DNA of 63,825 nt, counting the filler, from Collodictyon triciliatum (taxonomy: Eukaryota), in assembly GCA_043381765.1 (NCBI GenBank). It is 8 parts of 8 records of this genome, joined end to end, with 100 filler letters (N's around TTAATTAATTAA, not from the genome) between each part and the next. Parts side by side here need not be neighbours in the genome. Positions count along the whole stretch, not along the records: positions 1 to 8,488 come from JBHJMP010003405.1; 7 more parts are not named here. The stretch is one strand, 5' to 3'. Positions 168 through 36,138 of this stretch are shown piece by piece; the first letter of the stretch is position 1, and each line of letters starts with the position of its first letter. The position numbers and the translations under genes were made by a program. The notes beneath the pieces are model-generated. The model did not search any database and was not told where the DNA came from. It saw only the letters and a program-made list of their open reading frames with translations.

Positions 168-276
168 ACATAATGGTGTGACTCAAAGTGAGCATCAACT
201 CCTTTCCCTTCCAAAATAAAATGAAATAAAACGAAAAATTGAACGAAAGGAAATATAGAAGCAGAGTATCTCACGG

Positions 277-1953
277 TTAAGCAGAGTCTGGGTTGCTCGA
301 TTCTTGCGACGTTCCACTTTGATCTGCATTAGGAATCAACCGCAACTCTGTTAAAAAGGCCTCCGAAAACCCTATCGCCCACGCTTCTACTTTATCAGGG
401 GCCACAAGACCCGGGTGGCTTGCGAAGTATTGCAATGCAAAACTGCGGGCTCTTTCAGGGAGGGTAACGTGGTCAATCTGTCGGTCTGAGATCATTTTTT
501 CCTTCATGAATTTGTATGCTATTTCAACCTCTTCAATAGGAACTGATGTACTACACAGGATATCAGGTACGTCTAGTCGGGAGAGAACATCTCCCGTCAA
601 TCTTAAAGATTTTACTTTGGTTGAAAAATTTTCATGATTCTCGGGGGTATATTGTTTCAAGTAATCGAGTAACTCAGATATATTCAAGCCGCTGACATAC
701 TTCTTGGGAATACTTTGTTCTGTGGTGCCAGGTGTGTTAGTTCCGGAGTTCTCCAGGTGTTTCGGCTTAATCTCTTGGTGCGATATTGAGACCAGTCTCT
801 GAGCGTCCTCTTCCGAGATGTGATACGATTTAACTAATTCGCTTAATGTCAATTTCCATTTGATTTCTTTCACTTCGGTCCAGACCTCATTCGCAAATTT
901 TTCAGATAACCGAAAGCACCCGTGGTCATGTAAAAATTCTACTAATTCTCCTTGGTACATATCAAGCAGTGGCGAATAATTTGTGGGGAGCAATCGATTC
1001 ATTTTCACCAAAGATATTTGGTAGTCATTCGCAATCAATTCAGAAAGGTATTGCTTCACAGTATGTAAAGACGGTCGATGCTTATAGTTTTGTTTCCAAC
1101 AAACCTTGATCAGCTGTTGGATTGCAATAGGGACTCCAGGAGGAATAGCAGGCCTCAGTCCCCTAATCACAAAGCTCTGTGGTTGGGATTCACCTAGGAA
1201 GGGTTCAATTCCAGAGAACATGTACCATATCAAAAGGCCTAGTGCGTAAACATTGCTTGACTCCCCTCGATGCCCATAATTTATTCCGTCATCTCCATAC
1301 TTTTCTGGTTCATCAATGTATCTCGGTTTACTGACTATCTCATAGATTTCTGGTGCTTGCCAGTTCCTAGTACCTCCTTGCTTCCAGTCTCCAAATCGTG
1401 TGGGTAGATTTGAACCCACTCTATCTTTTTCGCGTCGACTAACGATTCCAAAATCAACTATTTTAATAACACCCTTATCTGTAACCATGATGTTGTCTCC
1501 CTTTAAGTCCTCGTGATAGATATCTTTAGAATGCATGAAAAGAAGCCCCTCACATATTTGCTTCGAGTAATTGATTACAGACTGGAACTCCAATTTATTC
1601 TCAACCGCCTTGCTTAGGGATTTTCCAGCGTGCTCCATCACCATGTAAAAATCGTTTCCAGAGCAATAGGCTCCGTAGATTTTTACAATATTCTCACAGG
1701 CACGGCAATCGTACAAGAATGTACTCTCGTAAACCAAAGATTCAATTATGTCACCAACAGTGAACGAAGCAGTCTCTTGAATTGTTTGAATCTTGACCAC
1801 GGCTTCTTCACTATCTCCTAGACGCGTCTTGTACACTCTACCAAAAGCACCTTTGGCTAAGTATCCGACTAACTCAACTGGATCGATTTTCATGTACTCC
1901 ACAGCCTTTTCGAGATGCTCCATGTTTTGGGACTTGACAGGAGAAACGATTCT
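277..1953 (-). other. Kinase exon of the Roco gene (TKL-like, non-RD) plus C-terminal SAM-like region
   Basis: Motifs AKGAFGRVYK, AVVK, HEDLKGDN, KIVDFG, GTRNWQAPE and CWKQNYKHRPS. The acceptor tattag|AGA at 1953 is in frame with ORF 277..1923. Confidence 0.9.
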
Positions 1954-4900
1954 CTAATAATAAGTACATAAATAATGAAAAAATTAGAGGTAAAGGGTCT
2001 CCATGAATGTTTTCACCTAAATCAAACATTTTGACAGGATGAATGAACAACAACAAACAAAAACAAACAAACAACAACAAACAACAACAAACAACAACAA
2101 ACAACAACAAACAACAACAAACAACAACAAACAACAACAAACAACAACAAACAAAAACAAACAAAAACAAAGAAAAACAAAGAAAAACAAACAAACAACA
2201 AAAGAAACCTGTCTTCTTCTGTTTTCAGAGAGTCTCCTCGATGAGAAGTCTGAAGAAAAAAATTAGCAAAGATTTAAAATTGATAATAAATCCCCATCAT
2301 ATTGCACAAATTAAAAGGAAGAATAAAAAAAAACATTCATTTCAAAGTACTTAAAATTTTCATTGACTGCACGGAATAGATTGTACTCATAAGTTCTTAA
2401 CTTATTTAATTATTTGTATTTTTTTTTGGAAACGATGATAAACATTAGATACCTGCATCCAATAGGAACGTTTGACCCATTTTCACTTTTTTAATGTCTA
2501 AGGTGTGTCTGTTTTTAAAACATTGAAGTTCTTTACTTCTTAACCTTGGAGATGTCACAATATGCCTGTCATTCTCACTTTGGCACTCATCTTTACACTT
2601 GTAACAAACTAATTGACAACAGCGTATAAAGTTTGATCGAATGACAACGATTCTTTTCCTCAGATATTGAATTACTTTAAATAATTCATAGTCTACCGTC
2701 GATAAATTCTCTCCTGATTTGTTTCTATACTTTCGCACGGTAATTGAAATTTTTTTGTATTTTTTTTCTTTCTTCTTTTCCTCCTCCACTTCCTCATCTT
2801 TTTCTGGAATGATGTGAATGAAAATTCTCAAATCCTCTCCGGGTAATAATTCAATGTCGTCGTCGTAAATGTCTGGAACTGATTCGGGTGACTTTTCCTG
2901 GGTTTTGACGTTGATCAATGCAAAATTCTTGTAAAAATGATTTTCAAAAGAGGCATTCAGAGAAGTGCCTTTGGTCAAGCGTAGTGCGGTGACGATGATG
3001 TTGCTTTTATCAGAGGGCTGTAAATAGCTATGGCAAATCAAATCCACTGAAAGTTCAGACGAGCAATTTGACTCTGGTTTTTTGTTCCATACGCTTTGGA
3101 CATTGAAATTCTCCTCCATAAGTGATGGGAAGGATAAACATTCTTTATTAAAGTGTATACCAAGTCCAAAATGATCAAATATGTAAACTATGACTGAAAA
3201 TACTCGTTCATCAATTTCAATATCAAATTCCTTTTCTATTCTTTGCTTCAGCTGGACGAAAAGGATGACTCCGTTTGAATTTTTCCCGATTCCCTTGAAA
3301 CTGAAAACGCATTTGAAGATATTGATGAGGAATAAGGGATCCAGAAAAATAATACTTTTCATATTTTCATAGGACCAATACCAGATGATTGAGCCTAAAT
3401 CATGCAAAAATTTAAGGGCTGAGATGCATTGCTTTCTCTCAAGTTCGAAAGATTCCTGAGCAAAATTGAAAATATCTTCTACTTTCATGAACCTCTCTTT
3501 CTTGCTTTTTTCCTCGAGGTATTCTTTCAACTGAATGTATGATTTCGGGATGTCCTTATTAACGATATCTAGACTTATTAGCCCAGCATGTATGGCATCT
3601 TTGAGATCATCAATACCCTCACCAGTTTTGCTACTTACTTCAACATCAGTTCTAAAAAACGAAAGGTATTTTTCTTTTCGTGCCTCGTCTTCGTCTTCCA
3701 AGGTATCTCTCGCTCGTTCTCCAGTCTTTCCTTCTTTCTCAGAGGATATCTCAATACCAGAGTCGTGCTGAGGGCCAGAATCTTTATGAATCTCCTTAGG
3801 TTTTTGGTCATAATCTTTCTTTGAATCTTTTTTTCTTTTCTCTTCAATATCCCTCTTCAATTCCTCGATCTCCTTTCTCATTTCATTGGCTGCTTCAGTG
3901 ACTTTTTGGTCTTTCCGAGTTCCTGCAATAATGATTTTTGAACCAGGGGCAAAATCATGAAGCATTTTGATCCAGCGGCTCAGGTTATTTTCCTTCTTTC
4001 CTTTGTCCAGTCTATAGAGGATTAACACGAGGGCCCCAGACGACAAAAAGAATGGATGTGTTACTTGGAATTCATCCTGCCCTCCAAAATCCCAGATTTT
4101 TGCAGATATCTTACTTTTCCATTTACCACCAAGAGATGTTTCATCTATATCTACCGTAGCTATTCCATCTGTTCTATCCCTGTAAGCGTCCACAGTACTT
4201 CTAAAGAAAAAGGATTTTTGCAGTATCGATTTTGTCAGTGTTGTCTTTCCAGTTTCCCCTTCTCCCAGTAAGAGTAATCTCCCTTGTGTCCATTTCTGAA
4301 TTCCTTTGAGCAACCCATCAAGGAAATCCATTACAGACTCGGATCCTCCATTAATTACATTGGACGGTACATTTTCGATCGGATTTCTTTCAACAACTAA
4401 TCCGCTTCTTAGTGTCTTAATTCGAGCAATTATAGAGGGGAGCTCTCTTATCTAAAATATAATCGAAATTAGTAAGATAGAGAAATACTTGCTTCTTCTG
4501 GTTTTGAAAATCAAAATTCAACCTCTCGAAATGATGAGTTTGTATTATTTTGTTTATTTTACTTGGTTGTCGAAGAGATTCAATTTATTGAGTTTTCTCA
4601 GATCGGCAAGAGATTCGGGAATATTGGATATCTAATCAATATTTGATCAGTGTCGTAGTGGTTTATGGGAAGTTGTGTTTCTATTTTTATTCATGAATTT
4701 TTTTACATTAAATGATTTAAATGGAATACATCCTAAAAAATCGTACTCTGTTATATGAAAGATCAAGTTCTTCAAGCAGTGTTAGACCGTAAATACCCAT
4801 GGGTATCTCATTAAGCTATGTAAATTATATTTAGAGATAATTAGTTCACATCAGTGCAAATATATGATGATTCTATTATTCGATTATTGTTCATTTGAAT

Positions 4901-7900
4901 TGAATAAAGGAAAACAAATTACTCGATTGCTGTTCAGCTTGAGTTGCCTTAGGTTCGTAAGCTTTGAAAATGAAACATGCAGTTGCGATATCTAAAAAAT
5001 TATAGAAAAATAAAGATAGAATTTTTTTTTGTTAGTTTCATTCACTGCGTACTAAAATATTTTTTTTTTATTGCTTTCGCATTGAATGATTGATTAAATT
5101 TAAGGACCAAATACTTGGTTTTTGCTGAGGGCTAGTTTTTCAAGATACACCAAAGTACTGATGTTTGCTTCAATACTTGATATCTTGGTAATTAATGTTA
5201 TTTTAACATGAGATTGTACAAATTGTGATATAAATAAATGAAGAAAATCTGGTGCATATGCATATGATTTCGATGACTGGTGAAGCCAACGCAAGCTAAA
5301 ATGAAGCAACCATACCTTGTTATCTGAAGCGTCGATGCTTTCATACTGTTTCCAATCTTCCAACATAGTATGTGTGATACTTTCAATATTGCGGCCTGTA
5401 CTTATCAAACTGAACTGAAGTTTGCCCAGGGCATCAGATATAGACATCTCCATTTCACCGACCTTTTTTTGGTTTCTCCAACAGGGAATTTTTTTAATTC
5501 CCATTGAGCATCGTTTTACATATATTTCACCTTCAATTTCAATCTGAAAATCACTCAAGCGTTCCATTCGGGAAATCCAGACAGGTATGTCTTCTATCTA
5601 TAAGTTATCAATGGTCCAATGAAACCGTCTTATTAGCGATATTATGGTGTTATTTTCTTATTGTACATAAAGTCAGCTCTGGCAAATACAGAAGAATTTT
5701 TTCTTTAAAAAGTAATAAAAAGATACTTGCCTGATTACTTTGTATACATAAAACTGACAAATTAGTCATGGAACTTATACAAACTGGCATCGAGGTGAAC
5801 TATACAATCACTCAATTTAATACGAGATATTATCGGCACACTGTTATGCACAAGATGGTAGACAATATGAATAGCATACCAGATTGTGGTTTATTTTTAG
5901 CATTTCGAGACCGCTAAGTCTGGATAGGGATTCTGGAAGACTCGAAATCTTAATGGAGTTAATGCTAGTGTCAATAAACTGCTTCAAACGATAAATATTG
6001 GCAAAAGAAAAGAGGGAATCTAGTGGCGATACAGTAATAGCATTACATACCTTATTTTCACTGCAAACGAGACCTTTTAAAAGTGTATATGATTCCAAGG
6101 CCCTAGGTATCGTGGATATCTAGCCGATTTCTGTTACAAATTTATCCGAAAAAAATGGCCACATTTTTGTACAGCCAAATATGTAAAGATTAAAAAATGA
6201 TTTCGCAAGATTTAATTAACCTGATTGGATGATAAGTCTATGTATTTAAACGACTTCCATTCTTCGAGCATGTGTGGTGCTATTACAGATATGTTTTCAT
6301 ATTTATGGACAGAAACTAAATCCACGGAACGCAGAAACTCGGAGATGGTCATCTTCATTCCATCGAACTTTGACTCATTGCTCCAACAAGGCATCATTCT
6401 TAATCCCCTGGGACAACGCTTTACGAACGTGCTATCAGTGGTTTCCATCTGAAACTCAGACAGATGAGCCAGTCTCGTAATCCAATAAGGAATCTCTTCG
6501 ATCTGAAGGAAGAGGTTGAATTCGTGAATCGCGCTGTATTAATATATACACTAAAAATTATTTTTGCCTCTTCTTACATCGTTATTTTGTATGTTCAGCG
6601 CTGTTAAGTTCGTAAGGAAGCTCAGAGTTGATGGAACAGATGTAAACTGGATTAGAAGTATATGATAAGAAAATAGTTTCGTATACATAACAACCTCTAT
6701 GATTAACCATAATTATATATTACAGAATTTGCACTAATGTTAAGTCTCCTCAACGAGGTGAGTTCTTTCATGGAATCTGGTATGGATGAGACCTAGGACA
6801 TTCAGATTAGATATGTTGACAACAATTGTAGGTACAATATGTATGTTCGCAAAGCATACCAAGTTTTTCTGAATGCTGAACTCGAGTAAGTTGCTCAATA
6901 GCCTCACTTCATGCGGTATAGACGATATCTGTGTTCCAAAAGGAAAAATTCCATGAAAGAATCCGACGAATGACTTCTTATAAATTTGAAAATGCACTTA
7001 AAGGAAGAAATGAGCCAAACAGTTATTTACCTTGTTCCTGGATACATCCACAATATGGCATCCAATCCAGGAATCAATCTTATCAGTAATATCTTCTAGA
7101 CCTTCATTGATCTCCCGAACATATAGTTCTAAGGACATTAATGCCTTTGAAACACTTATTGTCATATCCCTAATTATGTTATTGTTGCTCCAGCAAGGAA
7201 GGATTTTGATATTTTTAGGGCAGCGTGTGACGGATATAATTCCTTCGCTTTCAACTTGAAGTACTTCAAGCAGTTTCAAGAATTCTATCCAGCTTGGAAC
7301 TTCCTCAATCTATATGCAGGACATGCTTTCTTTTAGACTTACAAATAAGTAACTGAATAAAGAAAAAAAAGGCTTATAAATAAATAAAAAAATCTTTATT
7401 TTGTCACAAATATTTACCAATTTATATATCTATATCCAACCTGATTCTTTTCGATGCATAGTGTGGATATGCTTGTTAATACACTGAGACAAGCCGGTAG
7501 CTCGGTGAACTAAAATCACAAAAGAAAGAACACTTGCTTATTAAGAAATTAACTAAAATAGAATGCATTTAAAATCATTTTTATTGCAAATTAACTGTAT
7601 TCTTCGATATTTTTATACGAGTATTTCCTTTATTGAATTCAAAGTGATTTTGTATGAAAATTAAGCACCTGATTATTTCCCAAGTATAGTTCTACTAAAG
7701 AAGTTAACATCGAAAAAGAATCAGGCAGGGTCGATAGCTATATCAGAATTAAATATGAATCAATATGTATTTACCACGTTATGGATAAGGGCTATGGATG
7801 TTTTGGGAACCTTATTACTGCTGAGATCAAAATTTTGAATTATCTTCAAAAGGGACAATGATTCTGGAAGGAATGAAATCTAATACATAAATAAAAGTAG

Positions 7901-8276
7901 AATATTAAAATAAATAACTTTAAGGGAAATAGTTGAGCTTCCTGGTGGTACGAGATAAGAAAAGCTGACTGATAAAATAAGAAAACGACTTATGTACCTC
8001 GTTATCTGATATATCTACTATTTTGCAATCTATCCATTCATCGACTATGTTCGAAACATCCTTAATATTTTGACTTTTGTAAAATGAAAGCAGATTCAAC
8101 CGGCTCAGAGAGTCTGACACAGATCTGTTCATCCCTGGAAGAATAGCTGTATTTTCCCAACAAGGAAGCTTTTTGATTCCTTTAGGACATGTTTTCAGGA
8201 ATATGTTGCCCCCAAATTCAATTTGAAAGTCACACAAATTCACCAGCCGAGTAATCCACACCGGGATATCATTTAC
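277..8276 (-). CDS. LRRK-like Roco protein, 5'-partial, 20 visible exons, about 1,911 aa: LRR array - ROC GTPase - COR - protein kinase - two putative SAM-like domains
   Basis: Hand-spliced exons in transcription order: 8276-7998, 7879-7811, 7737-7669, 7509-7441, 7309-7031, 6928-6860, 6792-6724, 6646-6578, 6502-6221, 6119-6051, 5948-5880, 5799-5731, 5597-5316, 5183-5115, 4991-4923, 4815-4747, 4631-4563, 4451-2453, 2249-2209, 1953-277. All introns are GT-AG except one GC-AG, and the frame stays open throughout. The join to the kinase is inferred. Confidence 0.85.
2044..2203. repeat. (ACAACAACAA)n intronic simple repeat
   Basis: Directly visible; lies in the intron between the micro-exon and the kinase exon. 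Confidence 0.85.
2453..4451 (-). other. LRR cap + ROC GTPase + COR exon of the Roco gene
   Basis: LRR cap NPIENVPSNVINGGSESVMDFL; P-loop GEGETGKT; RTDGI; WDFGGQDEFQVTHPFFLS; GTRKD; VSSKTGEGI; COR motifs IPKSY, LKFLHDLGSI and FLDPLFL. Confidence 0.92.
4563..8276 (-). other. LRR exon array: thirteen 69-nt one-repeat exons and four 279/282-nt exons, all phase 0
   Basis: Examples: 4563-4631 ISNIPESLADLRKLNKLNLFDNQ; 4747-4815 LNEIPMGIYGLTLLEELDLSYNR; 7669-7737 LSTLPDSFSMLTSLVELYLGNNQ. Each is exactly 69 nt between AG and GT/GC. Confidence 0.92.
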
Positions 8277-8331
8277 CTTATAGATGAAAATTAAGTAAAC
8301 TTAAGCTATTGAAACATTTTTTATATAAAAA

Positions 8332-8377
8332 AGAAAGAGAAAGAGAGAGAGAAAGAGAGAGAAAGAGAGAGAGAAAG

Positions 8378-8408
<31 letters not shown>

Positions 8409-8420
8409 GAAAGAGAGAGA

Positions 8421-8488
<68 letters not shown>

Positions 8489-8588
8489 NNNNNNNNNNNN
8501 NNNNNNNNNNNNNNNNNNNNNNNNNNNNNNNNTTAATTAATTAANNNNNNNNNNNNNNNNNNNNNNNNNNNNNNNNNNNNNNNNNNNN

Positions 8589-8678
<90 letters not shown>
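8332..8678. repeat. (GA)n and (CT)n microsatellites at the two scaffold ends flanking a spacer
   Basis: Directly visible on both sides of the N spacer. Confidence 0.85.
8489..8588. other. Artificial scaffold spacer N44-TTAATTAATTAA-N44
   Basis: The same 100-nt spacer also occurs at 17078-17177, 25657-25756, 34241-34340, 42825-42924, 51403-51502 and 59977-60076. The core has stops in all six frames. Confidence 0.98.
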
Positions 8679-8679
<1 letters not shown>

Positions 8680-8733
8680 GCCCTGATTTTGCCCCTTCTG
8701 AATTGGCGTGATTCCGCACTGCCTTTTCCTCAG

Positions 8734-10154
8734 GTGATGCCTCTGCAAGACCGCCGTGCTGTTTGGGACGAGTGCATTCCCATCGTATCCACTTTGTATA
8801 AGGTATGAATATATATAAACCTCTCAGCTAACAAGATATCATATTATCCTCTCTCAGCACTAGCTCATCCTTGTTTGTGCTCTAACACGGTTCACTTTTT
8901 CATTCAGCACATAGAATTATTCATATAGATGATACCACATTATCTCCCAATATACACATATACAGGACTCTAAAGGTGTTGGATACCAAGTTAAGAATGC
9001 AAAGTTGTTCCTCCGCGATCCAAATCGCGTTGTTGGGACAATTCGTTTAAATATGAGTGATTTTGCTCAAGTTCGTGATTTTATAAACATGAAAGGACAT
9101 ACAAGTGGCTTTCTGGGAGAAACATATTTTCCCCTCCGTCTTCTCATATTGGTATCGCTTAATAATAATCCCAAATGTGCCTCAGACCTCTGGTGTTGAT
9201 ATTCCGCTAGATTTGGAGCTGGAAGAGTATTCAAAGCGACCCAAGCCTCGACCAACTATAAAAGTTTGTGTAATTATAACACGAAAAGGAAATAAACCAT
9301 AATAAAAATACTCCGCCTGGTCAAGATACACCTATCCTTGCCCCGCAATATCAATTATTCAGTGGCACGCTATATCCATGACACCATTTAATTAGGTGAC
9401 CATAACACCGATTTGGCTTAAAGATTACCAACCAGGCGACGCGTACGTGGCTATACTATTTTGAAAATTCATTAGAATATGTTTTGCTAAAAAAAGAAAA
9501 AGAAAAAAGTTAAGATAATCACATCCTATGTTCAATTACAACAGACGACAGAGCGATGTCAGCGACCTCAGTTATATGCAAGACATTGATGAGTCTGGAG
9601 GTGCTAGCAGTGCAGCAGAGCCACAAACATATTCGTACCACAATCAGCTGTATGGTAAAAAACCCGAGGATGAAGAGAATGAAGAGGTACAGCCAATGCA
9701 CAGCGAGAAAGAGAGGCCCCCCTTTGATTTGCTTCACCACCATGTGTAGCAATTAGCCACGTATACTCTTTTTTTTTTTAAAAAAAAAAAATCCTTTACA
9801 GAATGGAGAAAATGAACAAGAACAGGCAGCAGGAGCAGACGTATTAGACCCTGATGCAGTATGGCCTGTATTATTGTTCTTATTTCTTGTCTATTTTAGT
9901 ATCATTTATGAAGTCGCTATGAGGGCTTCTTTTCTTTTTCTTTCTTCTACCATACGGAAGTAATAAGGTCCTATATGTTCTAATCTCACTTGTAAGGCTC
10001 ACATAAAGTGTAAATTTATCTATTTTTTTTTTTTAAAAAAAAAATTCACAACTTTTTTCTTTTCTTTTTCTTCTCTGCGCAGGTCGAGTTTAACTTTGAT
10101 GGGAGTGGTGGCGACGGTGGCGATGGAGGTGATGGCGGCGATGGTGGAGATTAA
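8734..10154 (+). CDS. NT-C2 (EEIG1/EHBP1-type N-terminal C2) domain protein, 5'-partial, multi-exon, acidic tail
   Basis: Spliced peptide VMPLQDRRAVWDECIPIVSTLYK|DSKGVGYQVKNAKLFLRDPNRVVGTIRLNMSDFAQ|TSGVDIPLDLELEEYSKRPKPRPTIK|VTITPIWLKDYQPGDA|RQSDVSDLSYMQDID...VEFNFDGSGGDGGDGGDGGDGGD*. Junctions are GT-AG and in frame. Confidence 0.7.
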
Positions 10155-12025: not shown

Positions 12026-12605
12026 GTTGAGCTTTTCATTTCTCTTTTATTTTTTTATTTTGTTGATATTTCACCGTGCTTATATATACTGGATTTTATT
12101 TATTTTAATGAATGGGTTTCCTCTCTTANNNNNNNNNNNNNNNNNNNNNNNNNNNNNNNNNNNNNNNNNNNNNNNNNNNNNNNNNNNNNNNNNNNNNNNN
12201 NNNNNNNNNNNNNNNNNNNNNNNNNNNNNNNNNNNNNNNNNNNNNNNNNNNNNNNNNNNNNNNNNNNNNNNNNNNNNNNNNNNNNNNNNNNNNNNNNNNN
12301 NNNNNNNNNNNNNNNNNNNNNNNNNNNNNNNNNNNNNNNNNNNNNNNNNNNNNNNNNNNNNNNNNNNNNNNNNNNNNNNNNNNNNNNNNNNNNNNNNNNN
12401 NNNNNNNNNNNNNNNNNNNNNNNNNNNNNNNNNNNNNNNNNNNNNNNNNNNNNNNNNNNNNNNNNNNNNNNNNNNNNNNNNNNNNNNNNNNNNNNNNNNN
12501 NNNNNNNNNNNNNNNNNCGGGCTAGCCTCAGATAATTAAATATAGAAGGGTATACACGCATACATATGGCGGGGTTAAAGGTATCACATAAATTAGGGTA
12601 CAAAC

Positions 12606-14747: not shown

Positions 14748-15477
14748 CAGGTTCGATCGCAGGATGCTTGTCGGTCGGCAAGGGGACTTTGGGGCTCTGC
14801 TGCAGGATTCTTTCCACAAAGAGCTTGTTGCGCCCTCGCTTGTGGTGTGGTTGATTCGATCTTATTCAGCCGAAGCAAATGTTGCGTCACTTAATATACG
14901 TGGAATTTAATTTTAATGAATTCTATTGAAACAATTAATGGGTACTAATTCCCTAGTGTCTTGCATTAATTGTGATGTAGACATATACATCATATTATAG
15001 TGCTATCAAGGCCGACCAGCTATGTGTTCACGTACATAGCCAGAGAGCCAATGAAGGGAGAGTATCGACATCAATAACCATCCCCAAAACCCACAAGCAG
15101 TGTAGAGACATTCTGGTTCAACAACCAATATATAGTTCTCACCACGGATCCAAGGCGATCTTCGCTTCGTGGAGGGACGCTAGCCGGTTGGAGATTGCAA
15201 GGCCGCACAGCAAACTCCGGCCCAGGGAGGATCAACTCGCTACACACACAATCCTAAGCCAAGAGACCTTTTGGATCCTAACATAGCCCCGTCCCCGTTT
15301 CATCCTTATGTTGCTTGGAGAAGCGAAGTTGCTTGACTCTTTGATCTTACAATCCTCAAGAAACCGAACAAAAGAAAAAGAAATACTAAAACAAAAGACG
15401 CAGTAAACAAAGAAAGGAAAACACTATTAACATAGGCACACCAGAGCGCGACAAACCACCAAGCCCGATCCCGTGAA

Positions 15478-16452
15478 ATGAGCTATCAGCCCGACATGCC
15501 CGACTTGCCCATAGCGCCATCCTTCGGCTTTGGGCGAGAATGTATTGTCCCTCTGACTTACGACGCCATCAAATCTGAATACGAACTATTTCTCGAGGTG
15601 AGTCTACGAAAGCAAATCCTCCCCCAACTGGTGGTGAAGCAGTTCAGTGTGGAGATGCTCTATCACATCGAGGAGGACCTCAACAAAGTCCGCGACGACA
15701 TCCGCAAACTGATGCACCTGAATCCGCACCCAAACCTCGCACCGTACCTGGGGTTCTTCTGCCACCAGAACCAGCTTCACATAGTGCGGGCTTTTGCCGA
15801 GGGTGTTCCACTGCTCGAGGTGTTGGACAAAGGACTCGACATGCAAATTCACCTGCGCATAGCCATGCAGATAGCAAACGCCACACGCTATCTGATGAAG
15901 CAGCTGCCTCGCTTGCTCGATGGTGGTATGGAGTTTTCTGAGGAGCCGCTGTCCTGCCGCAACTTCATCTACGATGCAAACAAGCAGATCGTTGTCCTGG
16001 TAGATTATCAGCTGCAAACTCTACGTGGGTCAGTCCAGATGAAGTGGGATCAGCTGAATCGGGCATCCAGAGGGATGCTGATGTACCCTCCTGAGCTGAT
16101 GCGCACAGCCTTATACGCGGGAGAGCAAAGCGTTGTTTACAACCTTGCCCTTATCTCATATCAGATACTTATGAAAAGAAAGGTTAATGTCCGCCGCTTT
16201 CATATCAAGGAAATACCTGATGAGCGCTTTAGGGATGCCTTGGAAATTAATTTGAACCAGGAGCCCGACAACCGCTGGATGCTGCCTAAATGGATCAGCT
16301 TCTTGAGATGCTATTATGATGTCTGGTTACTCCTAACCACATATACATCTTCTATTTCTTATCTTTTCCTTCATATATACCCACACACAAGGCAGACTGG
16401 GACCGAGGATTTGTCACGAGTGCCTCCTCCCCTCCCCCCTCCCCCAAACTAG
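15478..16452 (+). CDS. TKL-like pseudokinase; termini may be altered by splicing
   Basis: LVVKQF, HPNLAPYLG, LHIVRAFAEG, IAMQIANATRYL, EEPLSCRNF in place of HRDLxxRN, VDYQ in place of DFG, YPPE and SVVYNLALISYQI. Confidence 0.7.
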   Translation: MSYQPDMPDLPIAPSFGFGRECIVPLTYDAIKSEYELFLEVSLRKQILPQLVVKQFSVEMLYHIEEDLNKVRDDIRKLMHLNPHPNLAPYLGFFCHQNQLHIVRAFAEGVPLLEVLDKGLDMQIHLRIAMQIANATRYLMKQLPRLLDGGMEFSEEPLSCRNFIYDANKQIVVLVDYQLQTLRGSVQMKWDQLNRASRGMLMYPPELMRTALYAGEQSVVYNLALISYQILMKRKVNVRRFHIKEIPDERFRDALEINLNQEPDNRWMLPKWISFLRCYYDVWLLLTTYTSSISYLFLHIYPHTRQTGTEDLSRVPPPLPPPPN

Positions 16453-21323: not shown

Positions 21324-24300
21324 TTTGTTTTATTTTGTTTTATTTTGTTTTATTTTGTTTTATTTTGTTTTATTTTGTTTTATTTTGTTTTATTTTGTTT
21401 TTGATAGGGCAATTCGATTTCGGACAATGTTGATAATGTGGAGTCGCATGTTCGTGTACTTCATTCGAAGACAAAGCCAAAGAAGCTAACCGTCAAGAGC
21501 TCTATGGGTTCAAGCTACTCATATTTGCTGAAGGGAAACGAAGATTTGGTAATTGAAAAATATGGTGAATGAGTTTATTTTATTCGAAAAAATAAATAAA
21601 TAAATAAAGTATCCTGCTTACTTTTCTTTTAATGGATTGGTAAGATATTAAATTGTAAATAGCATTTGGACGAAAGAATCATGCAATTGTGTAGGGCAGT
21701 AAATGAATTATGGAAAATTGATACGGAGGTAACCTTGTGCATAATTGATTGTAACAACGGGCATACGTAACTAATTTTTTATTACATTTCGGTATCTTCA
21801 ATATTTTGCCTGTATTTTACCAAATTTACTGAACTTTTGTTTTTTGATTATTATTATTGTGTCTCTTTTGGGGAACCTTTTGATTCATACCAAAGACCTC
21901 TGTTCGGAAAATCAGAGTCAGAAATTATTCCGTCATTCCACTGAATCAAGATACCGGCCTTTTGGAATGGGTCGATGGGTTAGTGCAAGAAAATATTATG
22001 TCATGCTTGAATCTCGATTAAAAGAAATAAAATTGAACACACAGTACCATCCCGCTGATTGATTTGTATCACAACTGGCAAACTGCAGTATCCATGAGAG
22101 AGTCGATTCACAGTAAGCCCGTCCGTTATCGAATACATTAGCAGTCAACATGTACATGCATGTTAGAATTTCTAAACGCTTTAGCTCTAGTTGTTATAAC
22201 CAACCCAAAAAAATTACATAATTATTTTTAATTAGGCTCTCCAACTCCTCCTACCATCCAGAAACCCATAGAAAACTATCGTGCTCGCATGGTTGTTGCT
22301 TTAAACGAACTAAACTTGAATATAAGCGCCAGAAAGAGTTGGCCTCGTAAAGTAATGGAGACTGTTTACAAAGAGATGAAGAATCAATCCCCAAAGTACT
22401 ATTTCTTACCTTGGTTTACTTTTGCATGCATTCGTTTCGTTAATTTAATGACGTTATTGTTTATGTGACGATTTTGAAGTATGTTTTCCTTCATATAAAA
22501 GAGTTAGAAGAGGGGAGTTTTAAACGTGTATGTCCTCTCTGGGGCACCTCTTTTGTGACGTACTTTGTTTGGAAGAATTTATTTATTGACCTATTGTTTA
22601 TCCATAAACGTAGGTATTTACTCAGCGAAGAGCTTTGGATATCAAGTCGAAGTTTAGAAGATTGGACTTCAAAATGCAGAAACTACAGAATATCGTTGGT
22701 CGCAAATTCAATTTTGGGTACCAGTTCGGCAATTTTCAATTTTTGAGAGAGAGAAACAAAAAAAAATGTGTTATAAAATTTGCAAGTAGTCAATATTTAA
22801 GACTCCCATCTTACCGTGTCCATATAGGCTACTTGATTGGACTCGGTGATAGGCACTTGGGAAACATTCTCTTTGACATGACGACAGGAGAGCTTATTCA
22901 TATTGATTACAGTACGCATTTTGAACCCCACGAATTGATGCATATTTGTGCATGTTTTTTTCTTAAAGGAAAAAAATGTAGTCGATGCAATACGCTATTT
23001 GACCATCAAATGATAATGTGCCGATTTGCCTCGTATTTAATTTGTACGTATCAGGTATCTGTTTTGAGAAAGGAACACAACTGAGGATTCCAGAAAATGT
23101 TTGTGTGGTTTTTGTTTGTGGTTTCTTTTGCAACCTAAATTTCTAATCGATAGGAGTAAAGAATAGCATTTTGCTGTAGTGAATGACATTGCATCTTACA
23201 ATCCACATAGGTTCCCTTCCGACTCACTCCAATTCTTATCGATGCTCTTGGTGTCGCGGGAGTGGAAGGCCCATTCCGAATGGGCGCGGAGCACGCTTTG
23301 AAAACACTTCGAAAGTATATCGCCCATCGCATTTTTCAAACATGAAAAAAAGAAAAGAAAAGAAAAGAGCTATGTTTTTTTTTCTTTATTCGATTCAATG
23401 TAGAAATAACATATGTTGATTATTCAATCTGGCATGATTATTACAACGCAATTTGTTATGATCTTATCAGTTTTTCATGAAAGAAACACATATGTCCTAA
23501 AACATGCAAATTCCTTTGTAAAAGTGGTCAAGACATCATCATCAACACCCTATCTGTTTTTATGAACGACCCACTGCTCGACTGGACTATCACGTATGAA
23601 ATATGCGAGCAATATGTCACTTTTACTTGCATTTTTTGTCTTGATCTAATTTTAAAAAAAAAAAGCGCAAAGGTACTCTATGGCACACTTTAAAGTTATT
23701 GATAGCAAAATCTGCTGTTCACGAAAATCTGGTAATTAGGAACGAGACTCCTAAAGAGAATGAGCTTAATCCACAGGAAGACCAAGCAGATGCCGAAAAT
23801 GTTGTAGTCACAGAAGGTAGGCATTTTCAGCAAATAAGTTGCTGCTGTGTACCTGCCGGTCACTTTTTCTTCTTCCCCGAAAGGAGGCAAATATTTGAAT
23901 CGGAGAGGTTCAGCTTGTCGTATATCAACGGAGAGGGGGAGGGAGGAAAAAAACAAAAATGAAGGGGATGAGACAATCACACATGCGCATACTATTTGGT
24001 AAAGGTATTCGAGGAGTCCGCTATGCAGAGCAAGTCCTTTCCCGCATAGAAACGAAGCTGAAAGGCTTCGACTTTGCGCCAGGAGTCCAGCCACTGTCCA
24101 TCTCAGAGCAGGTCACACATTTCATTGCCACCAAACATTACATACATCACATACATTACACACATCACATACATATGCACCGCCGTAATTCGAGAAAAAG
24201 GGCACGAGAATGAACATGCCGAGGTTCCCCGGACTGAGACTCACATTTCACATAAACGCGGACATAAACATACAAACAGGTTGCACGACTCATTCAAGAG

Positions 24301-24357
24301 TCCACCAGCGACGACAACCTCTGCACCATGTATGAAGGATGGACGCCGTGGATATAG
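17562..24357 (+). CDS. SMG1: PIKK-family kinase SMG1 (nonsense-mediated decay), 5'-partial, many exons
   Basis: FAT-type AQSSRRCGNY and WINVIPQ|LF; SKTKPKKL...YSYLLKGNEDL|HLDERIMQ; GLGDRHLGNIL..IHIDY|SICFEKG; VPFRLT; DPLLDWT; FATC KLKGFD...LSISEQ|VARLIQESTSDDNLCTMYEGWTPWI*. KTKPKKL, HLDERIMQ, IDY and YEGWT.W are SMG1-type signatures. Confidence 0.9.
21168..21402. repeat. Intronic T-rich simple repeats and poly-T inside SMG1
   Basis: Directly visible. Confidence 0.85.
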
Positions 24358-24588
24358 CCGGGGAGAAAGCGCACCAGAGTCACCTGATCGGCCGCTTATA
24401 AAAGCAAGACAAACGGCGCCAAAGCCAGAGACTTGCATCATCCCCGCCAACGCAGCAGAGCGAGCGACAACCAAGAGGAGCACCGATTTCTCTACTGTGA
24501 TTAACTTTTTAGTTTGCATCTCACCACCATTGCACGTCAAGCCACGCCTTACTGTGTACACAGCGAGAGTGAGAGCGAGAGTGAGAGC

Positions 24589-24629
<41 letters not shown>

Positions 24630-24649
24630 AAAGCATGAGAGAAGGCGGA

Positions 24650-25484
24650 TCAGAGATTGCAGCGGGCCTCGCGGGGGTTCTCGTTGCGGGGTGTGCAGAT
24701 GTAGTCTGTGGATGCGGGGCAGACGAACTGCTGGCCGGGGACCCAGGCATCGGGCTTGCTTGCGGCGGGCTTGTGCATGTTGTTCCAGAGGGTGACTGCG
24801 ACGCCCTGGTGGGTGACTGCGGCGAAGTGGAAGCAGTCTGGGGCAAAGTACTCGCGGATGGGGCGGCCGGCACTATCGCGGGGGATCTGGGTGTTTTCGT
24901 ACATGGGCTGATAGGCCACTGCAAAGTCGTCGCGGAGATAGCGCGGGTCTGCGGCGAGCTCGCGGAGGAGGACGTTGTAGTCTGCGCATGTGCGGGAGAC
25001 CTGCGCGCGGACGTTTGCGTCGTTGGACGTGCCGCATGCGCAGACGGCCTGGTGCACGGCAGCGCAGCCGAGGAAGCCGGAGCCCTCGACCGCCTTGAGC
25101 TTGGCCACGTCGATGACGCCGACCAGGTTGACCAGCATGCGCGGCACTTGTGTGAGGATGTCGAGCGTCGCGCGCACGCTGCTGGCAAAGACGCTCGGTG
25201 AGTCCTGCGCTGGGTCCTTGCACACGCGGCACAGGTTGTTGCCGCCGATAAAGAGCGTGACAATCTTCCACTCCCCGGAGTAGTCTGCCCGTTCTCGCAG
25301 CAGCCGCACAAGCTCCGTCGCCTGCCCCGCCGTGTCCTGCGCAACCGCCCCGCTCACCGCCACGTTCAGTCCCTTCTGCCCGCTGCCAATCCCCAACGAG
25401 TATCCCGCCACGCGGCTGCTGTACGCCCGCACGATGTTGGGCAGCGTCACTGTGTTCCCCACGTTCCCGTCTCCTCCGATGCTC
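24650..25484 (-). CDS. Phospholipase B1-like SGNH/GDSL lipase, last exon (5'-partial)
   Basis: SIGGD..VTLPNI, LNVAVSGA, WKIVTLFIGGNNLC, YFAPDCFHF (DxxH) and LWNNM; acceptor aaacag at 25484/25485. Confidence 0.9.
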
Positions 25485-25756
25485 CTGTTTGCACATGCAT
25501 ACACAGATAGATAGGCGAAGATAGATGTCTGAGTCAGTATATTTCTCTCTCATGGTGTATCGCTCCATGTATGTTGTTTTTTTTTGGTTTTTTTTGGTTT
25601 TTTTGGTTTTTTTGGTTTTTTTGGTTTTTTTGGTTTTTTTGGTTTTTTTGGTTTTTNNNNNNNNNNNNNNNNNNNNNNNNNNNNNNNNNNNNNNNNNNNN
25701 TTAATTAATTAANNNNNNNNNNNNNNNNNNNNNNNNNNNNNNNNNNNNNNNNNNNN

Positions 25757-28700
25757 TCACAAGTGGAGTTTCTCAACTCAAATCCTATCTTGCATTCGCA
25801 ATCGGTTGAATAAAGAGAGCCATTGTTTTTTGTCGTAAATTTATCGCCACAGGATAAGCAGAAATTCGTGCCGTTTGTTGGTTTGTATGCGCCAAGTCTG
25901 CACGGAACACACTCACTTCCATCCTCAAAGTTTCCTGGAGGACATGTACAAATAGCATCATATGACACATAGGTATATAAGCATTTACAATAATCGATTG
26001 ATATGGAACCTTCTTTTATTGTGGTTGAGCGTGTCGGGCATAGGTTGCATGATGTGGTTCTTTCTGAGCTGTAGCTTCCATTCGGACATGAGATACATGA
26101 AGATTGATTATACGAGCCAGTTTTATTGTTGAATGTTCCCGCTGGACATGATGTGCATGATGCTTGACCATCTCTATCATTCCAAGTACCTTGTGGACAT
26201 TCGATACATGATTTGTTTCCATAGGAGCCGAAGTTTGAGTTGAATGTGCCTTTTGGACAAGCATAGCATGATTGTGAGTCTTTTGTCATACCTTCTTTTT
26301 GATAGAATCCTGGTGAGCATGAGTTGCATGATGCGCTTCTTTCTGAGCTGTAGCTTCCATTTGGACATGAAATGCATGAAGATTCATTAAATGAGCCAGT
26401 TTTGTTGTTGAATGTACCAGCTGGACACGATGTGCATGATGCCTGGCCATTCTTGTCATTCCAGGTACCTTGTGGACATTCGGTACATGATTTGTTTCCA
26501 TATGAGCCAGAGTTCGAGTTGAATGAGCCTTTTGGACAAGCGTAGCATGATTGTGAATCTTTTGTGATTCCTTCTTTTTGATAGAATCCTGATGAGCATA
26601 AGCTACATGATGCGCTTCTCTCTGAGCTGTAGCTTCCATTTGGACATGAAATGCATGATGATTGATTGAATGAGCCAGTAATGTTGTTGAATGTACCAGC
26701 CGGACATGATGTGCATGATGCTTGTCCATCTCTATCATTCCAAGTGCCTTGTGGACACTCAATGCATGATGAGTTTCCATATGAGCCGGATTTTGAGTTG
26801 AATGTGCCTTTTAGACAAGCGTAGCATGATTGTGAGTCTTTTGTGACACCTTCTTTTTGATAGAATCCTGATAAACATAGACTGCATGATGAGCTTCTTT
26901 CTGAGCTGTAGCTTCCATTTGGACATGAAATGCATGATGATTGATTGAATGAGCCAGTTTTGTTGTTGAATGTACCCGCTCGACATGATGTGCATGATGC
27001 TTGACCATCTCTATCATTCCAAGTGCCTTGTGGACATTCAACACATGATTTGTTTCCGTATGAACCGAAGTTTGAGTTGAATGTGCCTTTTGGACAAGCA
27101 TAGCATGATTGTGAGTCTTTTGTGATTTCTTCTTTTTGATAGAATCCTGGTGAGCATAAAATGCATGATGAGCTTCTCTCTGAACTGTAGCTTCCGTTTG
27201 GACATGAAATGCATGATGATTGGTTGAATGAGCCACTTTTATTGTTAAATGTACCAGCTGGACATGATGTGCATGATGCTTGACCATCTCTATCATTCCA
27301 AGTGCCTTGTGGACATTCAATACATGATGAGTTCCCATATGAGCCGGATTTTGTGTTGAATGTGCCTTTTGGACAAGCATAGCATGATTGTGAGTCTTTC
27401 ATTATTCCATCTTTTTGGTAGAATCCTGATAAACACAAACTGCATGATGCGCTTCTCTCTGAGCTGTAGCTTCCATTCGGACATGAAATGCATGATAATG
27501 GATTGAATGAGCCAGTTTGATTGTTGAATGTACCAGCTGGACATGATGTGCATGATGCTTGACCATCTCTATCATTCCAAGTGCCTTGTGGACATTCAAT
27601 GCATGATTTGTTTCCATATGAGCCGGAGTTCGAGTTGAATGTGCCTTTTGGACAAGCATAGCATGATTCAGAGTCTTTTTTTATTCCTTCTTTTTGATAG
27701 AATCCTGATGAGCATAAGCTGCATGAAGAGCTTCCAACTGAGCTGTAGCTTCCATTTGGACATGAAATGCATGATGATTGATTGAATGAACTAGTTTGAT
27801 TGTTGTATGTGCCAGCTGGACATGATGTGCATGATGCTTGACCATCTTTATCATTCCAAGTACCTTGTGGACATTCGATACATGATGTGTTTCCATATGA
27901 GCCGGATTTTGAGTTGAATGTGCCTTTTGGACAAGCATAACACGATTTTGGGTCTTTTTTTATTCCTTCTTTTTGATAGAATCCTGATAAGCATGAATTG
28001 CATGATGCGCTTCTCTCTGAGCTGTAGCTTCCATCTGAACATGAAATACATGATGATTGATTGAATGAGCCTGTTTTGTTGTTAATTGTACCAGCTGGAC
28101 ATGATGCGCATGATGCTTGACTATCTCTATCATTCCAAGTGCCTTGCGGACATTCAGTACATGATTTGTTTCCATATGAGCCGGAGTTTGAGTTGAATGT
28201 GCCTTTTGGACAGGCATAGCATGATTCCGAGTCTTTTAATATTCCGCCTTCTTGATAGAGTCCTGGTGAACATGAGATGCATGATGCGCTTCTTTCTGAG
28301 CTGTAGCTTCCATCTGAACATGAAATACATGATGATTGGTTTAATGAGCCTGTTTTGTTGTTCATTGTACCAGCTGGACATGATGTACATGATGCTTGAC
28401 CATCTTTATCATTCCAAGTGCCTTGTGGACATTCAATACATGATTTGTTTCCATATGAGCCGGAGTTTGAGTTGAATGTGCCTTTTGGACAAGCATAGCA
28501 TGATTCCGAGTATTTTAATATTCCTTCTTCTTGATAGAATCCTGATAAACACAGACTGCATGATGCGCTTCCAACTGAGCTGTAGCTTCCGTTTGGACAT
28601 GAAACACATGATGATTGATTGTATGAACCAGTTTTATTGTTGAATGTACCAGCCGGGCATGATATGCATGATGCTTGACCCTCCTTATTATTCCAAGTAC

Positions 28701-34240: not shown

Positions 34241-34437
34241 NNNNNNNNNNNNNNNNNNNNNNNNNNNNNNNNNNNNNNNNNNNNTTAATTAATTAANNNN
34301 NNNNNNNNNNNNNNNNNNNNNNNNNNNNNNNNNNNNNNNNAAAACATCCTTCATGTATCATCACCCTAAAAAAAAAAAAAACTAGTTGAGTTACTCACGC
34401 GTTACAAGATAGGAAGCGTAGCACAGCAGCGAAGGCC

Positions 34438-36138
34438 ATGGACTTTGATACTTCTGAGCAGCACCCTCGCAGCTCTCTCTTTTTAAGCACCCCTTCGCAG
34501 CCTCCTCCAAAGTGCGAGCATCCCAGTGCCGGAGCGCATCACAACCTCCCACATACCCCAGAAGCAACATCTGCCGATGCACGCAATAATGATAGTCTCG
34601 GTGCTCCAGGGGATTGTGGGATTGACTACCCCCAAGACTTTCGCATGCGCACAGGCGATCTCCACTCTAAGGGCGATGCGGAGACAGAGAAACAATCCCA
34701 ATACAGACAGGAGCATGAACGCAGTGGGTATTTTTTTGGAGAAGTAGGAGACACACAAAAGCTAGAGGAACGAAGGGAGCTGACTTTCAAGCACTGCACC
34801 AAGGTGGCGAGCGCGATGTGGATTAGAGCTGTGAGAAGCGTTTGTGGTGTTTTGGTAGCAAATATGGCCTTTTTATGGATTTACTATATCCCAGCTATAG
34901 TTATCGCACATAATGCACTTCTTTTTCTGAGATATATATTGTACAGGGTTATTTTGGCTGAATTAACTAACTCATTATTCTGGATTTCTATTTCGATAGC
35001 CGCTTCAAATATATTTACGATTCGTTACACATGGAGGGCAATACTTTTCTCGTTTCTTCCAGGATATATCTCAGATAGCATTTTTTATCCTACCCCACAA
35101 TTTAGAAATGTTGAATTATATAGAAATGTATCCAGTATTGTTAGTGTCATGTGTTTGGCTCTTGGAGCTTATATAATATATAGGTATAGCCCTACAGACG
35201 AAAACAAAGAACATGCCGATGAATACCATCGCCTTACAAAAGACGGGTCTGTTTCTGCATTGTTCAAAGGAATTCTTGGGTTCTCTGTTTTCATCTATTT
35301 TATTTTTTTGAACATACTCTCCTACTTGGAATCAGGTTTTTGGCTAAAGATAGTTTTCAGATTTATTGTTATTCCATTGTGCTTTAGGATTTCCAAATGG
35401 TACCAAATGAGGGTTATTTTTAAACTTTCAAAAAGACAAACTGATAGAAGGCTTATTGTGTACAAAATGTGTAATCATTATATTCAGCTAATTAGCCGCA
35501 TCTTGATATCAAACTTCACGACAAAAAGCGCCCTTTCATATCAATTTGTGCTCATTAACTTTAGTGGCTCGCTTGAGGAAGTCCTGTATACAGTATCTTT
35601 CGAGTACAAAGAGAGATCACTTTATAATATTTCAAGCAAATGTGCCGATTTTTATCAAATGTGCGCATCATATGTGATCGGAAATTGCATGAATACTGTC
35701 GTGCCCGTCTCAGAATTCGATAACCCTGATAATATCATCCAGTCAGACGCAATAGCCTCTGATGCAAAGAAAAAATCAAAAGAAGACACCCACGTGAAAG
35801 AGGCTGTTTCTTTTCGTGCGAGGTATATCTACGACGACATTATTTCAGAAATTTACTCAATATTTCTGGCACCTCTCATCATTTATTTCACTCAACATGT
35901 TGCATCCGAAGATTTGGCATTTAACTTCATGTCGACTTATCAAGAGTGCTTCTATCAAATTATTATTCAGCTCCTCTTCGAACTCATCGGGGATTCATTT
36001 TCACTTACTTACCATCTTTACAGAGGACACATGAATGTAACAAATTATGTTGATTGGAGGCCAATGGGGCAGCAATTGCTTTTCGTTTGGTCGCTGTACT
36101 GTACCCTCTCGATTCAAAGGATACTTTTACTGTCTTAA
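34438..36138 (+). CDS. Uncharacterised multi-pass membrane protein (566 aa), paralog A
   Basis: Intronless ORF with many hydrophobic segments; colinear similarity to 36900..38483. Confidence 0.8.
   Translation: MDFDTSEQHPRSSLFLSTPSQPPPKCEHPSAGAHHNLPHTPEATSADARNNDSLGAPGDCGIDYPQDFRMRTGDLHSKGDAETEKQSQYRQEHERSGYFFGEVGDTQKLEERRELTFKHCTKVASAMWIRAVRSVCGVLVANMAFLWIYYIPAIVIAHNALLFLRYILYRVILAELTNSLFWISISIAASNIFTIRYTWRAILFSFLPGYISDSIFYPTPQFRNVELYRNVSSIVSVMCLALGAYIIYRYSPTDENKEHADEYHRLTKDGSVSALFKGILGFSVFIYFIFLNILSYLESGFWLKIVFRFIVIPLCFRISKWYQMRVIFKLSKRQTDRRLIVYKMCNHYIQLISRILISNFTTKSALSYQFVLINFSGSLEEVLYTVSFEYKERSLYNISSKCADFYQMCASYVIGNCMNTVVPVSEFDNPDNIIQSDAIASDAKKKSKEDTHVKEAVSFRARYIYDDIISEIYSIFLAPLIIYFTQHVASEDLAFNFMSTYQECFYQIIIQLLFELIGDSFSLTYHLYRGHMNVTNYVDWRPMGQQLLFVWSLYCTLSIQRILLLS

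Follow-up and report, generated by a model that had tools for sequence, protein, structure and literature searches.

ROCO kinases include human LRRK2, and how the leucine-rich repeat (LRR) domains of these proteins act in sensing is still poorly understood. The locus considered here lies on the minus strand of a 63,825-nucleotide (nt) stretch of DNA from Collodictyon triciliatum (GenBank assembly GCA_043381765.1; filler included), the whole of which we refer to as the window. It contains a ROCO gene whose LRR region is divided into a regular series of frame-neutral exons, which raises the question of whether these exons are cassettes in active use, as the initial annotation proposed, or the trace of an old protein design. 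Our analysis favors the second answer: this is probably a constitutively spliced ROCO gene with a lineage-specific LRR super-repeat and an old inherited exon plan, and not an active diversifier. The gene is of a known kind, an LRRK-like ROCO kinase; what is new is the lineage-specific, exon-encoded LRR super-repeat. We propose that it would encode a protein of at least 1911 amino acids (aa), comprising LRR, ROC GTPase, COR, protein kinase, and C-terminal tail, and that its owner would be a freshwater relative of Diphylleia (Diphyllatea, CRuMs).

The gene model and its RNA support

A scripted scan for open frames of the expected exon sizes flanked by AG and GT returned 16 of the 17 LRR exons claimed earlier; the exon that was missed (5799-5731) has a GC donor. 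On the minus strand, the array reads 279, 69, 69, 69 / 279, 69, 69, 69 / 282, 69, 69, 69 / 282, 69, 69, 69, 69 nt, that is, thirteen exons of 69 nt and four of 279 or 282 nt, with each boundary in phase 0. All 17 acceptors are AG, 16 donors are GT and one is GC, and the 16 introns separating the LRR exons measure 67-159 nt; a further intron of 111 nt leads from the last LRR exon to the ROC-COR exon, which begins at 4451. Each of the 13 small exons encodes 23 aa, of which residue 22 is always N, and follows the LxxLxLxxN consensus at a 23-residue period, as expected of a canonical LRR solenoid of the SHOC2/LRRK class. Translation also confirmed that the third small exon of modules 1-3 opens with 'FT'.

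RNA evidence came mainly from two sequencing runs, X1 and X2, with 43% and 29% of the sampled words, respectively. Their contigs were aligned to positions 270-8310 and taken as cDNA because their loose ends carry one common non-genomic, adapter-like sequence. Two further runs, X3 and X4, are lake/freshwater metatranscriptomes with about 5% of the sampled words. Five joints are exact in both X1 and X2 (4451/4563, 4631/4747, 4815/4923, 4991/5115, and 5183/5316) and five more in X1 only (5597/5731, a GC-AG intron; 5799/5880; 5948/6051; 6119/6221; and 6502/6578). Ten predicted junctions were thus confirmed exactly, exons 1-6 being without cover, and the originally described series of 17 phase-0 exons, ordered big-3-big-3-big-3-big-4, is borne out by the splice scan and, for its 3' half, by the cDNA contigs.

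Pfam identified Roc (PF08477; E 6.6e-19, 68.7 bits against a cut-off of 27) and COR-A (PF16095; E 7e-13, 49.1 bits against a cut-off of 35.3; residues 302-410) in the 1999-nt ROC-COR exon, with no separate COR-B match listed in this search, and Pkinase (E 1.2e-34) in the next long open frame. Both exons had been recognized in the initial annotation, but a 40-nt micro-exon between them had been overlooked: contigs of X1 and X2 contain the joint 2249/2453 plus 40 extra letters ahead of the kinase exon, and in X1 record 1 the 40 letters stand between pieces on 2453-3331 and 722-1954. The micro-exon was included because it is required for the frame between the ROC-COR and kinase exons; a single X1 contig links all three, with the frame open. 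Across 20 exons the spliced frame remains open for 1911 codons, with a stop at 277-279, and the gene is an LRR-ROC-COR-kinase gene, that is, a ROCO gene with a kinase after COR. The P-loop GEGETGKT, DFGGQ, and TRKD, which we take to be the ROC motifs, look intact in the translation, and VVK, HED..N, DFG, and APE are presumably the motifs of the kinase, which keeps the Lys (VVK), DFG, and APE and has a catalytic loop with HED in place of HRD. The C-terminal tail is common only to proteins of Diphylleia rotans; kinase and tail together are 28% identical to D. rotans P0024 over 508 aa (E 1e-46). No ankyrin, armadillo, or WD40 parts were detected in the ROCO gene.

Exon 1 starts at an acceptor and has no start codon. 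Its 5' flank is a (TC)n/(GA)n tract that surrounds an N gap, where the 5' end of the gene has been lost, so that the four modules are a minimum. No RNA cover was found over 6736-8310 (exons 1-6 and the rest of exon 7) in the four runs, which has no bearing on expression. Past exon 8, an X1 contig matches 12 nt of the 3' end of exon 7 (6724-6735) and then runs into adapter-like sequence. Together with the uncovered region, this end could be taken to mean that the gene model is an artefact, with exons 1-7 belonging to another transcript or being decaying remnants and the true start lying near exon 8. We consider this highly improbable. The contig end carries the same non-genomic sequence as other contig ends, which argues for an incomplete cDNA of an mRNA of ~6 kb and not for a transcription start; splicing carries the contig into exon 7, which means that the transcript extends upstream; and exons 1-7 remain open, are flanked by AG and GT, fit the LRR consensus, and repeat the module order of the other exons.

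Other contig pieces stand apart from this model. Within the intron that separates ROC-COR from the micro-exon, ~40 nt (2294-2333, plus strand) are matched by X1 and X2 contigs, in which this piece is followed by a poly(A)-like tail and preceded by 188-255 letters foreign to the window; they may stem from a different transcript whose 3' end lies here, from a repeat, or from contig chimerism. X1 also contains odd joints in the COR region (3182-3296 and 3248-3826), one of which skips 113 nt with GT..CT ends and the other of which is a T-rich 33-mer replacement, as well as loose ends at 3139 and 3323; all of these are probably paralogous transcripts or assembly chimeras. X3 and X4 yielded a few pieces of 151-227 nt on the ROC-COR and kinase exons, with 0-1 differences each, which hint at a freshwater habitat.

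The long unit, its relatives, and its duplication

An alignment of the four long exons spans 93-94 residues, with 37-41% aa identity and with P5, W7, C30, P38-C39-W40, N42, W81, D88, S90, and N92 invariant. The exons conform to a family pattern of ~93 aa, here called the PCW unit: IPxWI...L..L.I(E), a ...PxGI..LPCW loop, L.L, and W..C..(I/V)D.S.N. Three of the four had no match in Pfam, and the fourth matched LRR_8 at E 0.072. For its fold we relied on an AlphaFold2 model of the D. rotans homolog P0062 (665 aa, 19-row alignment, mean pLDDT 77.8), in which the long unit forms four strands of irregular spacing within one continuous solenoid, at a local pLDDT of about 90 with one dip to 67. A normal rung 1 is followed by a short rung 2 (I.I.RAP) whose helix is the GI..LP segment, by a lower-confidence loop after PC(W/Y), and by two rungs ending (I/V)D.S.N. 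This model, and the length of 279/282 nt as compared with 276 nt for 4 x 69, suggest that a long exon corresponds to about four LRRs with irregular rungs. The P0062 model speaks against the idea that the long unit is a separate non-LRR island domain.

The best Foldseek match of the P0062 model was SHOC2 (E 8.4e-22), with global TM-scores of 0.25-0.35 and an rmsd of about 15 A; given these low scores, the shape of the arc differs from that of SHOC2. A search of the PDB with the profile of the big unit returned nothing significant (best E 0.053), and a look-up of big exon 13 in the ESM Atlas gave no usable match; the 93 profile positions are collinear with ~90 residues of SHOC2 (weakly, E 0.27) and of a Leptospira LRR protein. 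The periodic long units probably govern the geometry of the arc or display the conserved PCW loops at even spacing.

Searched against 1,835,955,588 representative proteins, the profile of the four big exons produced 42 matches at E ≤ 1e-3, including 23 at E ≤ 1e-10, the best being from D. rotans (E 1.7e-38). Identity was checked for 28 of the 42: 24 are from D. rotans, three are short environmental contigs, and one is a plant LRR protein, matched partially, over the generic second half only. Outside D. rotans, the unit is almost missing from this set. D. rotans transcripts with the long unit represent at least 21 Trinity genes, and a local search of 43 proteins recovered 32 near-full long units. 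Spacers between successive units (n = 19) measure 47-50 aa, or two repeats, in nine cases, 69-70 aa in two, 93-95 aa in two, and other lengths in six; the spacer of the window gene is 69 aa, or three repeats. Two to five ordinary 23-residue LRRs come after the long units in D. rotans, and an 'FT...LP' repeat often precedes or opens the next one. The units are joined to different partners: ROC-COR with DUF4062 and P-loop/NACHT-like regions (P0001-3, P0017, and P0042), a kinase with the tail (P0024 and P0025), or a cysteine-rich TRIM-like region (P0028). The best relatives of the window ROCO gene are all D. rotans transcripts, and the two-tier plan is a conserved protein design common to the D. 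rotans homologs, not special to the window locus.

No counterpart of the two-tier module turned up in Pfam or in the literature as far as these were checked, in keeping with the assertion that it belongs to no described family; literature searches on ROCO in CRuMs and on Diphyll* with leucine-rich repeat found nothing relevant. Scans of metagenome contigs gave 213 pattern matches with the big-exon profile and 568 with the ROC-COR exon, none of which was confirmed, and hence no independent genomic copies.

How the modules arose can be read from the exons themselves. Small exons of modules 1-3 (n = 9) are more similar at the same position than at different positions (aa identity 0.396 vs 0.312; permutation p = 0.018 for aa and p = 0.042 for nt, 20,000 label permutations). 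Third-position ('FT') exons share 43-52% aa identity with each other and 17-39% with other small exons; first-position exons show 26-30% aa identity and no position effect. The four long units of the window form one clade among 36 units, with an SH-like support of 0.85. Same-position similarity and this clade point to duplication of whole modules within the gene lineage, in agreement with what had been suggested for the 'FT' exons. The duplications are, however, ancient (~40% protein identity among modules). The small exons have 28-59% nt identity; repeats sought across 4400-8320 amounted to seven short families only (20-33 nt, 67-85%), none of them spanning introns, and there was no intron similarity between modules. 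With the 17 exon peptides as queries, tBLASTn against the rest of the window did not detect the big unit again; its matches were weak and either LRR-like or due to chance (best E 0.009). We propose that entire modules were duplicated within the gene long ago, giving the present four, in each of which a ~93-aa irregular unit with the ...LPCW... loop motif would provide four unequal rungs and alternate with a few canonical 23-residue SHOC2/LRRK-type LRRs.

Inherited exon plan versus active diversification

Relatives of the gene bear on the age of its exon boundaries. Among nine short database fragments that reach the end of a long unit, seven continue with V right after N-x and then lose LRR character; in the sister isoform of such a fragment, a proper repeat follows the unit end. 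In two D. rotans clusters, what separates paired isoforms is either a V...Q insertion of 49 residues or a 'GNF/VS...' read-through. We read the V...Q insertions and read-through, which come from transcripts and not from D. rotans genomic DNA, as likely retained phase-0 GT...AG introns at the repeat boundary used in the window. Under the proposed plan, a phase-0 intron would follow the 'N-x' of each canonical repeat as well as the end of each long unit, and because the intron position is common to relatives, the cassette look would be an old inherited exon plan. Over long times, such a plan may let whole repeats be gained or lost, in line with the two to five repeats found between long units.

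An alignment of D. rotans P0058 with P0017 contains, at columns 600-649, a 49-residue in-frame V...Q insertion inside a long unit. Some long units of D. rotans would seem to hold an internal phase-0 intron, unlike the four of the window.

A different reading, and the one originally put forward, is that the phase-0 cassettes are in active use through skipping, mutually exclusive splicing, or shuffling of exons and modules, yielding a combinatorial recognition surface on a GTPase-kinase and an immune-receptor-like diversifier of the sort proposed for brown-algal ROCOs. The gene format lends itself to this: 17 of 17 LRR exons are symmetric in phase 0, so that each is droppable or doublable in frame; the ordinary repeats between long units vary in number among the D. 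rotans relatives; the attachment of the long-unit LRR to several effector sets, in no fewer than the 21 Trinity genes mentioned above, resembles an expanded receptor repertoire; and splice variants are known for brown-algal ROCO LRR exons (PMC11378527). Yet the check for exon skipping was negative, with no skipping joint in X1 or X2 contigs at the ten junctions seen across the two runs, and the D. rotans isoforms (7 clusters, 3-6 each) reflect retained introns or truncation, with no clean loss of 23-residue units. The LRR exons have diverged to 28-59% nt identity without intron similarity, and no spare LRR exons were seen in the introns, which are 67-159 nt long, or on the other strand. Between X1 and the window, the LRR pieces differ at 3 of 771 nt and the other pieces (ROC-COR and kinase) at 6 of 1150, 9 of 879, and 9 of 1233; by position, 25 differences were listed (15 synonymous and 10 nonsynonymous), and a single one, K to E in long exon 13, falls in an LRR exon. 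The LRR exons are no more divergent between window and X1 than the ROC-COR and kinase exons. The exon format is also unlike that of brown-algal ROCO exons. The cassettes are indeed frame-neutral and permit in-frame gain, loss, or skipping, as claimed, and the count of repeats between long units did change over the history of the family, but contigs, isoforms, and divergence give no sign of current use, and we regard active diversification as unlikely.

Several points weigh against the inherited, constitutively spliced gene that we prefer. Contigs keep dominant forms and drop rare isoforms, so the absence of skipping joints is weak evidence, and constitutive splicing is not proven. One gene of the organism was examined, and recent paralogs or shuffled copies may exist elsewhere. 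The position-specific similarity of the small exons comes mostly from the third one, and the clade support of the long units is moderate, from only 93 columns. Exons 1-6 are predicted from splice signals and LRR coding. The structural interpretation derives from the model of a relative built on a shallow alignment, and a window big exon folded alone (16-row alignment) gave an unusable model (mean pLDDT 51.7). Finally, with HED in place of HRD, the activity and regulation of the kinase may differ from those of LRRK2.

A broader scenario, which we offer tentatively and hold to be rather doubtful, is that Diphyllatea (CRuMs) possess a private receptor toolkit, in which PCW four-rung units and canonical repeats, with a phase-0 intron per boundary, are coupled to at least four effector types (ROCO-kinase; ROCO with DUF4062 and P-loop/NACHT-like regions; kinase with tail; TRIM-like) in an innate-immunity-like or prey-sensing role, where gains and losses of exons, perhaps along with a low level of skipping, would adjust the repeat number. 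If such a receptor repertoire were real, CRuMs would join the lineages with expanded LRR-based sensing. Otherwise, what remains is a gene model with good support in a lineage that lacks annotation, and a warning that frame-neutral exons are not in themselves evidence of active diversification.

For the old, constitutively spliced design itself, regulation through LRR, ROC-COR, and kinase in LRRK2 and Dictyostelium Roco4 serves as the model of mechanism. By analogy, the LRR arc may bind a protein partner or ligand and gate the ROC-COR GTPase switch that would control kinase output. A deep-branching, little-studied lineage has an LRRK-like protein with a conserved higher-order LRR repeat written into its exon structure, which offers a clean natural setting in which to ask whether curvature or binding sites of long LRR arcs depend on irregular rungs that recur periodically.

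Surroundings of the gene and comparison with known systems

Coordinates of the gene features are collected in Table 1. Composition varies along the window (28-51% GC per 2-kb bin, mostly 30-43%), which has short introns, many microsatellites, and N gaps. N runs around the TTAATTAATTAA linker form the gap at ~8490-8590, within a microsatellite, and further N runs, appearing as X runs in translations, lie at ~12100-12520, ~17130, ~25700, ~34290, ~42880, and ~45330-46290, several of them beside microsatellites; adjacency across N gaps is not proven by the sequence itself. Past the gap upstream of the ROCO gene are apparent plus-strand exons (8725-8793 and 8933-9199), one with an ATG and AG/GT flanks, a plus-strand start near 9535, and an 88-aa frame without a Pfam family; these plus-strand exons look like another gene. 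A weak kinase-like open frame follows at 15436-16452 (plus strand).

Farther along, the GC-richest 2-kb block (24000-26000, 51%) contains an open reading frame (ORF) for a GDSL-lipase (24650-25549, minus strand; PF00657, E 3.3e-15) beside an N gap; the block could be a compositional outlier or a misjoined piece. An uninterrupted frame of 2859 aa (25705-34284, minus strand), with N gaps at both ends, encodes at least 23 WD40 repeats and then 40 cysteine-rich Ephrin_rec_like repeats (PF07699), and its DNA has periodic weak matches every 279 nt. Two convergent paralogous frames of 540-582 aa without a Pfam family (34390-36138, plus; 36900-38522, minus) have the stretches YRLTKDGS..ALFKG and FRARYI.DD in common and a multi-pass membrane look. 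A WD40 protein with seven or more blades (49486-50694, plus strand) has repeats resembling those of the 2859-aa ORF, and a WD-repeat gene at 56566-57390 (minus strand) is broken by (GAA)n-type repeats. At 58212-59279 (minus strand) lies an exon encoding a tyrosyl-tRNA synthetase that carries a tRNA-binding domain at its C-terminus; this exon is 82% identical to D. rotans P0076 (EukProt), the next best match being 55%. From this similarity, and from the D. rotans relatives of the ROCO gene, we place the organism as a freshwater diphylleid or collodictyonid (CRuMs) other than D. rotans; a brown-algal or other stramenopile origin was rejected on the synthetase similarity and the exon format.

Table 1. 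Features of the ROCO gene, from 5' to 3', and the tract at its 5' end
Feature	Position	Strand	Basis
Big exon 1, 279 nt, 93 aa, irregular four-rung LRR unit, PCW motif	7998..8276	-	Splice scan; without RNA cover
Small LRR exon 2, 69 nt	7811..7879	-	Splice scan
Small LRR exon 3, 69 nt	7669..7737	-	Splice scan
Small LRR exon 4, 69 nt, 'FT' type	7441..7509	-	Splice scan
Big exon 5, 279 nt	7031..7309	-	Splice scan
Small LRR exon 6, 69 nt	6860..6928	-	Splice scan
Small LRR exon 7, 69 nt	6724..6792	-	Splice scan; 12 nt of 3' end joined to exon 8 in X1 contig
Small LRR exon 8, 69 nt, 'FT' type	6578..6646	-	Splice scan; joint 6502/6578 in X1
Big exon 9, 282 nt	6221..6502	-	Splice scan; both joints in X1
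Small LRR exon 10, 69 nt	6051..6119	-	Splice scan and cDNA
Small LRR exon 11, 69 nt	5880..5948	-	Splice scan and cDNA
Small LRR exon 12, 69 nt, 'FT' type, GC donor (GC-AG intron)	5731..5799	-	Joint 5597/5731, ends CT..GC, X1
Big exon 13, 282 nt	5316..5597	-	Splice scan and cDNA
Small LRR exon 14, 69 nt	5115..5183	-	Splice scan; joints in X1 and X2
Small LRR exon 15, 69 nt	4923..4991	-	Splice scan and cDNA
Small LRR exon 16, 69 nt	4747..4815	-	Splice scan and cDNA
Small LRR exon 17, 69 nt	4563..4631	-	Splice scan and cDNA
Exon of 1999 nt: last LRR and cap, ROC GTPase, COR	2453..4451	-	Pfam; joints 4451/4563 and 2249/2453
Micro-exon, 40 nt, COR-to-kinase link, lower boundary inferred	about 2210..2249	-	X1 contig; AG/GT flanks; open frame
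Exon with protein kinase and ~250-aa C-terminal tail, stop 277-279	277..1954	-	Pfam Pkinase; frame check; tail homology
(TC)n/(GA)n microsatellite around N gap with TTAATTAATTAA linker; gene 5' end lost	8320..8690	.	Sequence reading

With ROCO kinases of the LRRK2/LRRK1 and Dictyostelium Roco4 type, the window gene shares the order of LRR, ROC, COR, and kinase; LRRK1-like proteins match it weakly (E 3e-12 to 1e-10). Unlike these proteins, it has the HED loop, a tail found only in D. rotans, and lineage-specific long units, and lacks detected ankyrin, armadillo, or WD40 parts. SHOC2, the best structural match of the modeled D. rotans homolog, differs in curvature and has no PCW-type long unit. 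Recurrence of repeat length classes in a fixed order is known from the LRR 'super-motifs' of small leucine-rich proteoglycans and of TLR7/8/9. Those proteins are extracellular and have short/typical triads, whereas the protein type considered here is cytosolic and of the SHOC2 type, combines four irregular rungs with two to five canonical repeats, and has the block coincide with an exon.

A literature search on phase-0 LRR genes with one repeat per exon yielded no paper. Gonadotropin receptors also have one LRR per exon of similar size, with introns all in one phase, according to a work cited in PMC11378527; these exons are in phase 2, encode extracellular repeats, and have no two-tier module, in contrast to the phase-0, two-tier array of the window.

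The comparison with brown algae (Ectocarpus and Saccharina), which the initial annotation had drawn, captures the shared principle of single 23-residue LRRs on frame-neutral exons in candidate receptors of the LRR-ROC-COR type, as described in PMC11378527 and PMC3341825, but it is a loose one, because exon size and phase differ, and the window gene does not belong to that group. In these two sources, brown-algal LRR exons are 72 bp long, in phase 2, intensely shuffled, and alternatively spliced, with four positively selected sites on the concave face. The proteins keep an LRR-ROC-COR plan and lack the kinase; the window gene has 69-nt exons in phase 0 and an attached kinase. Neither 72-bp phase-2 exons nor recent shuffling or alternative LRR exons were found in it, although contigs miss rare isoforms; its exons are anciently diverged, each module has a long four-rung exon, and no splice variants were seen. 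Given this difference in exon format, the gene is the second instance of 'one LRR per exon' among ROCO genes and seems to be independent of the first.

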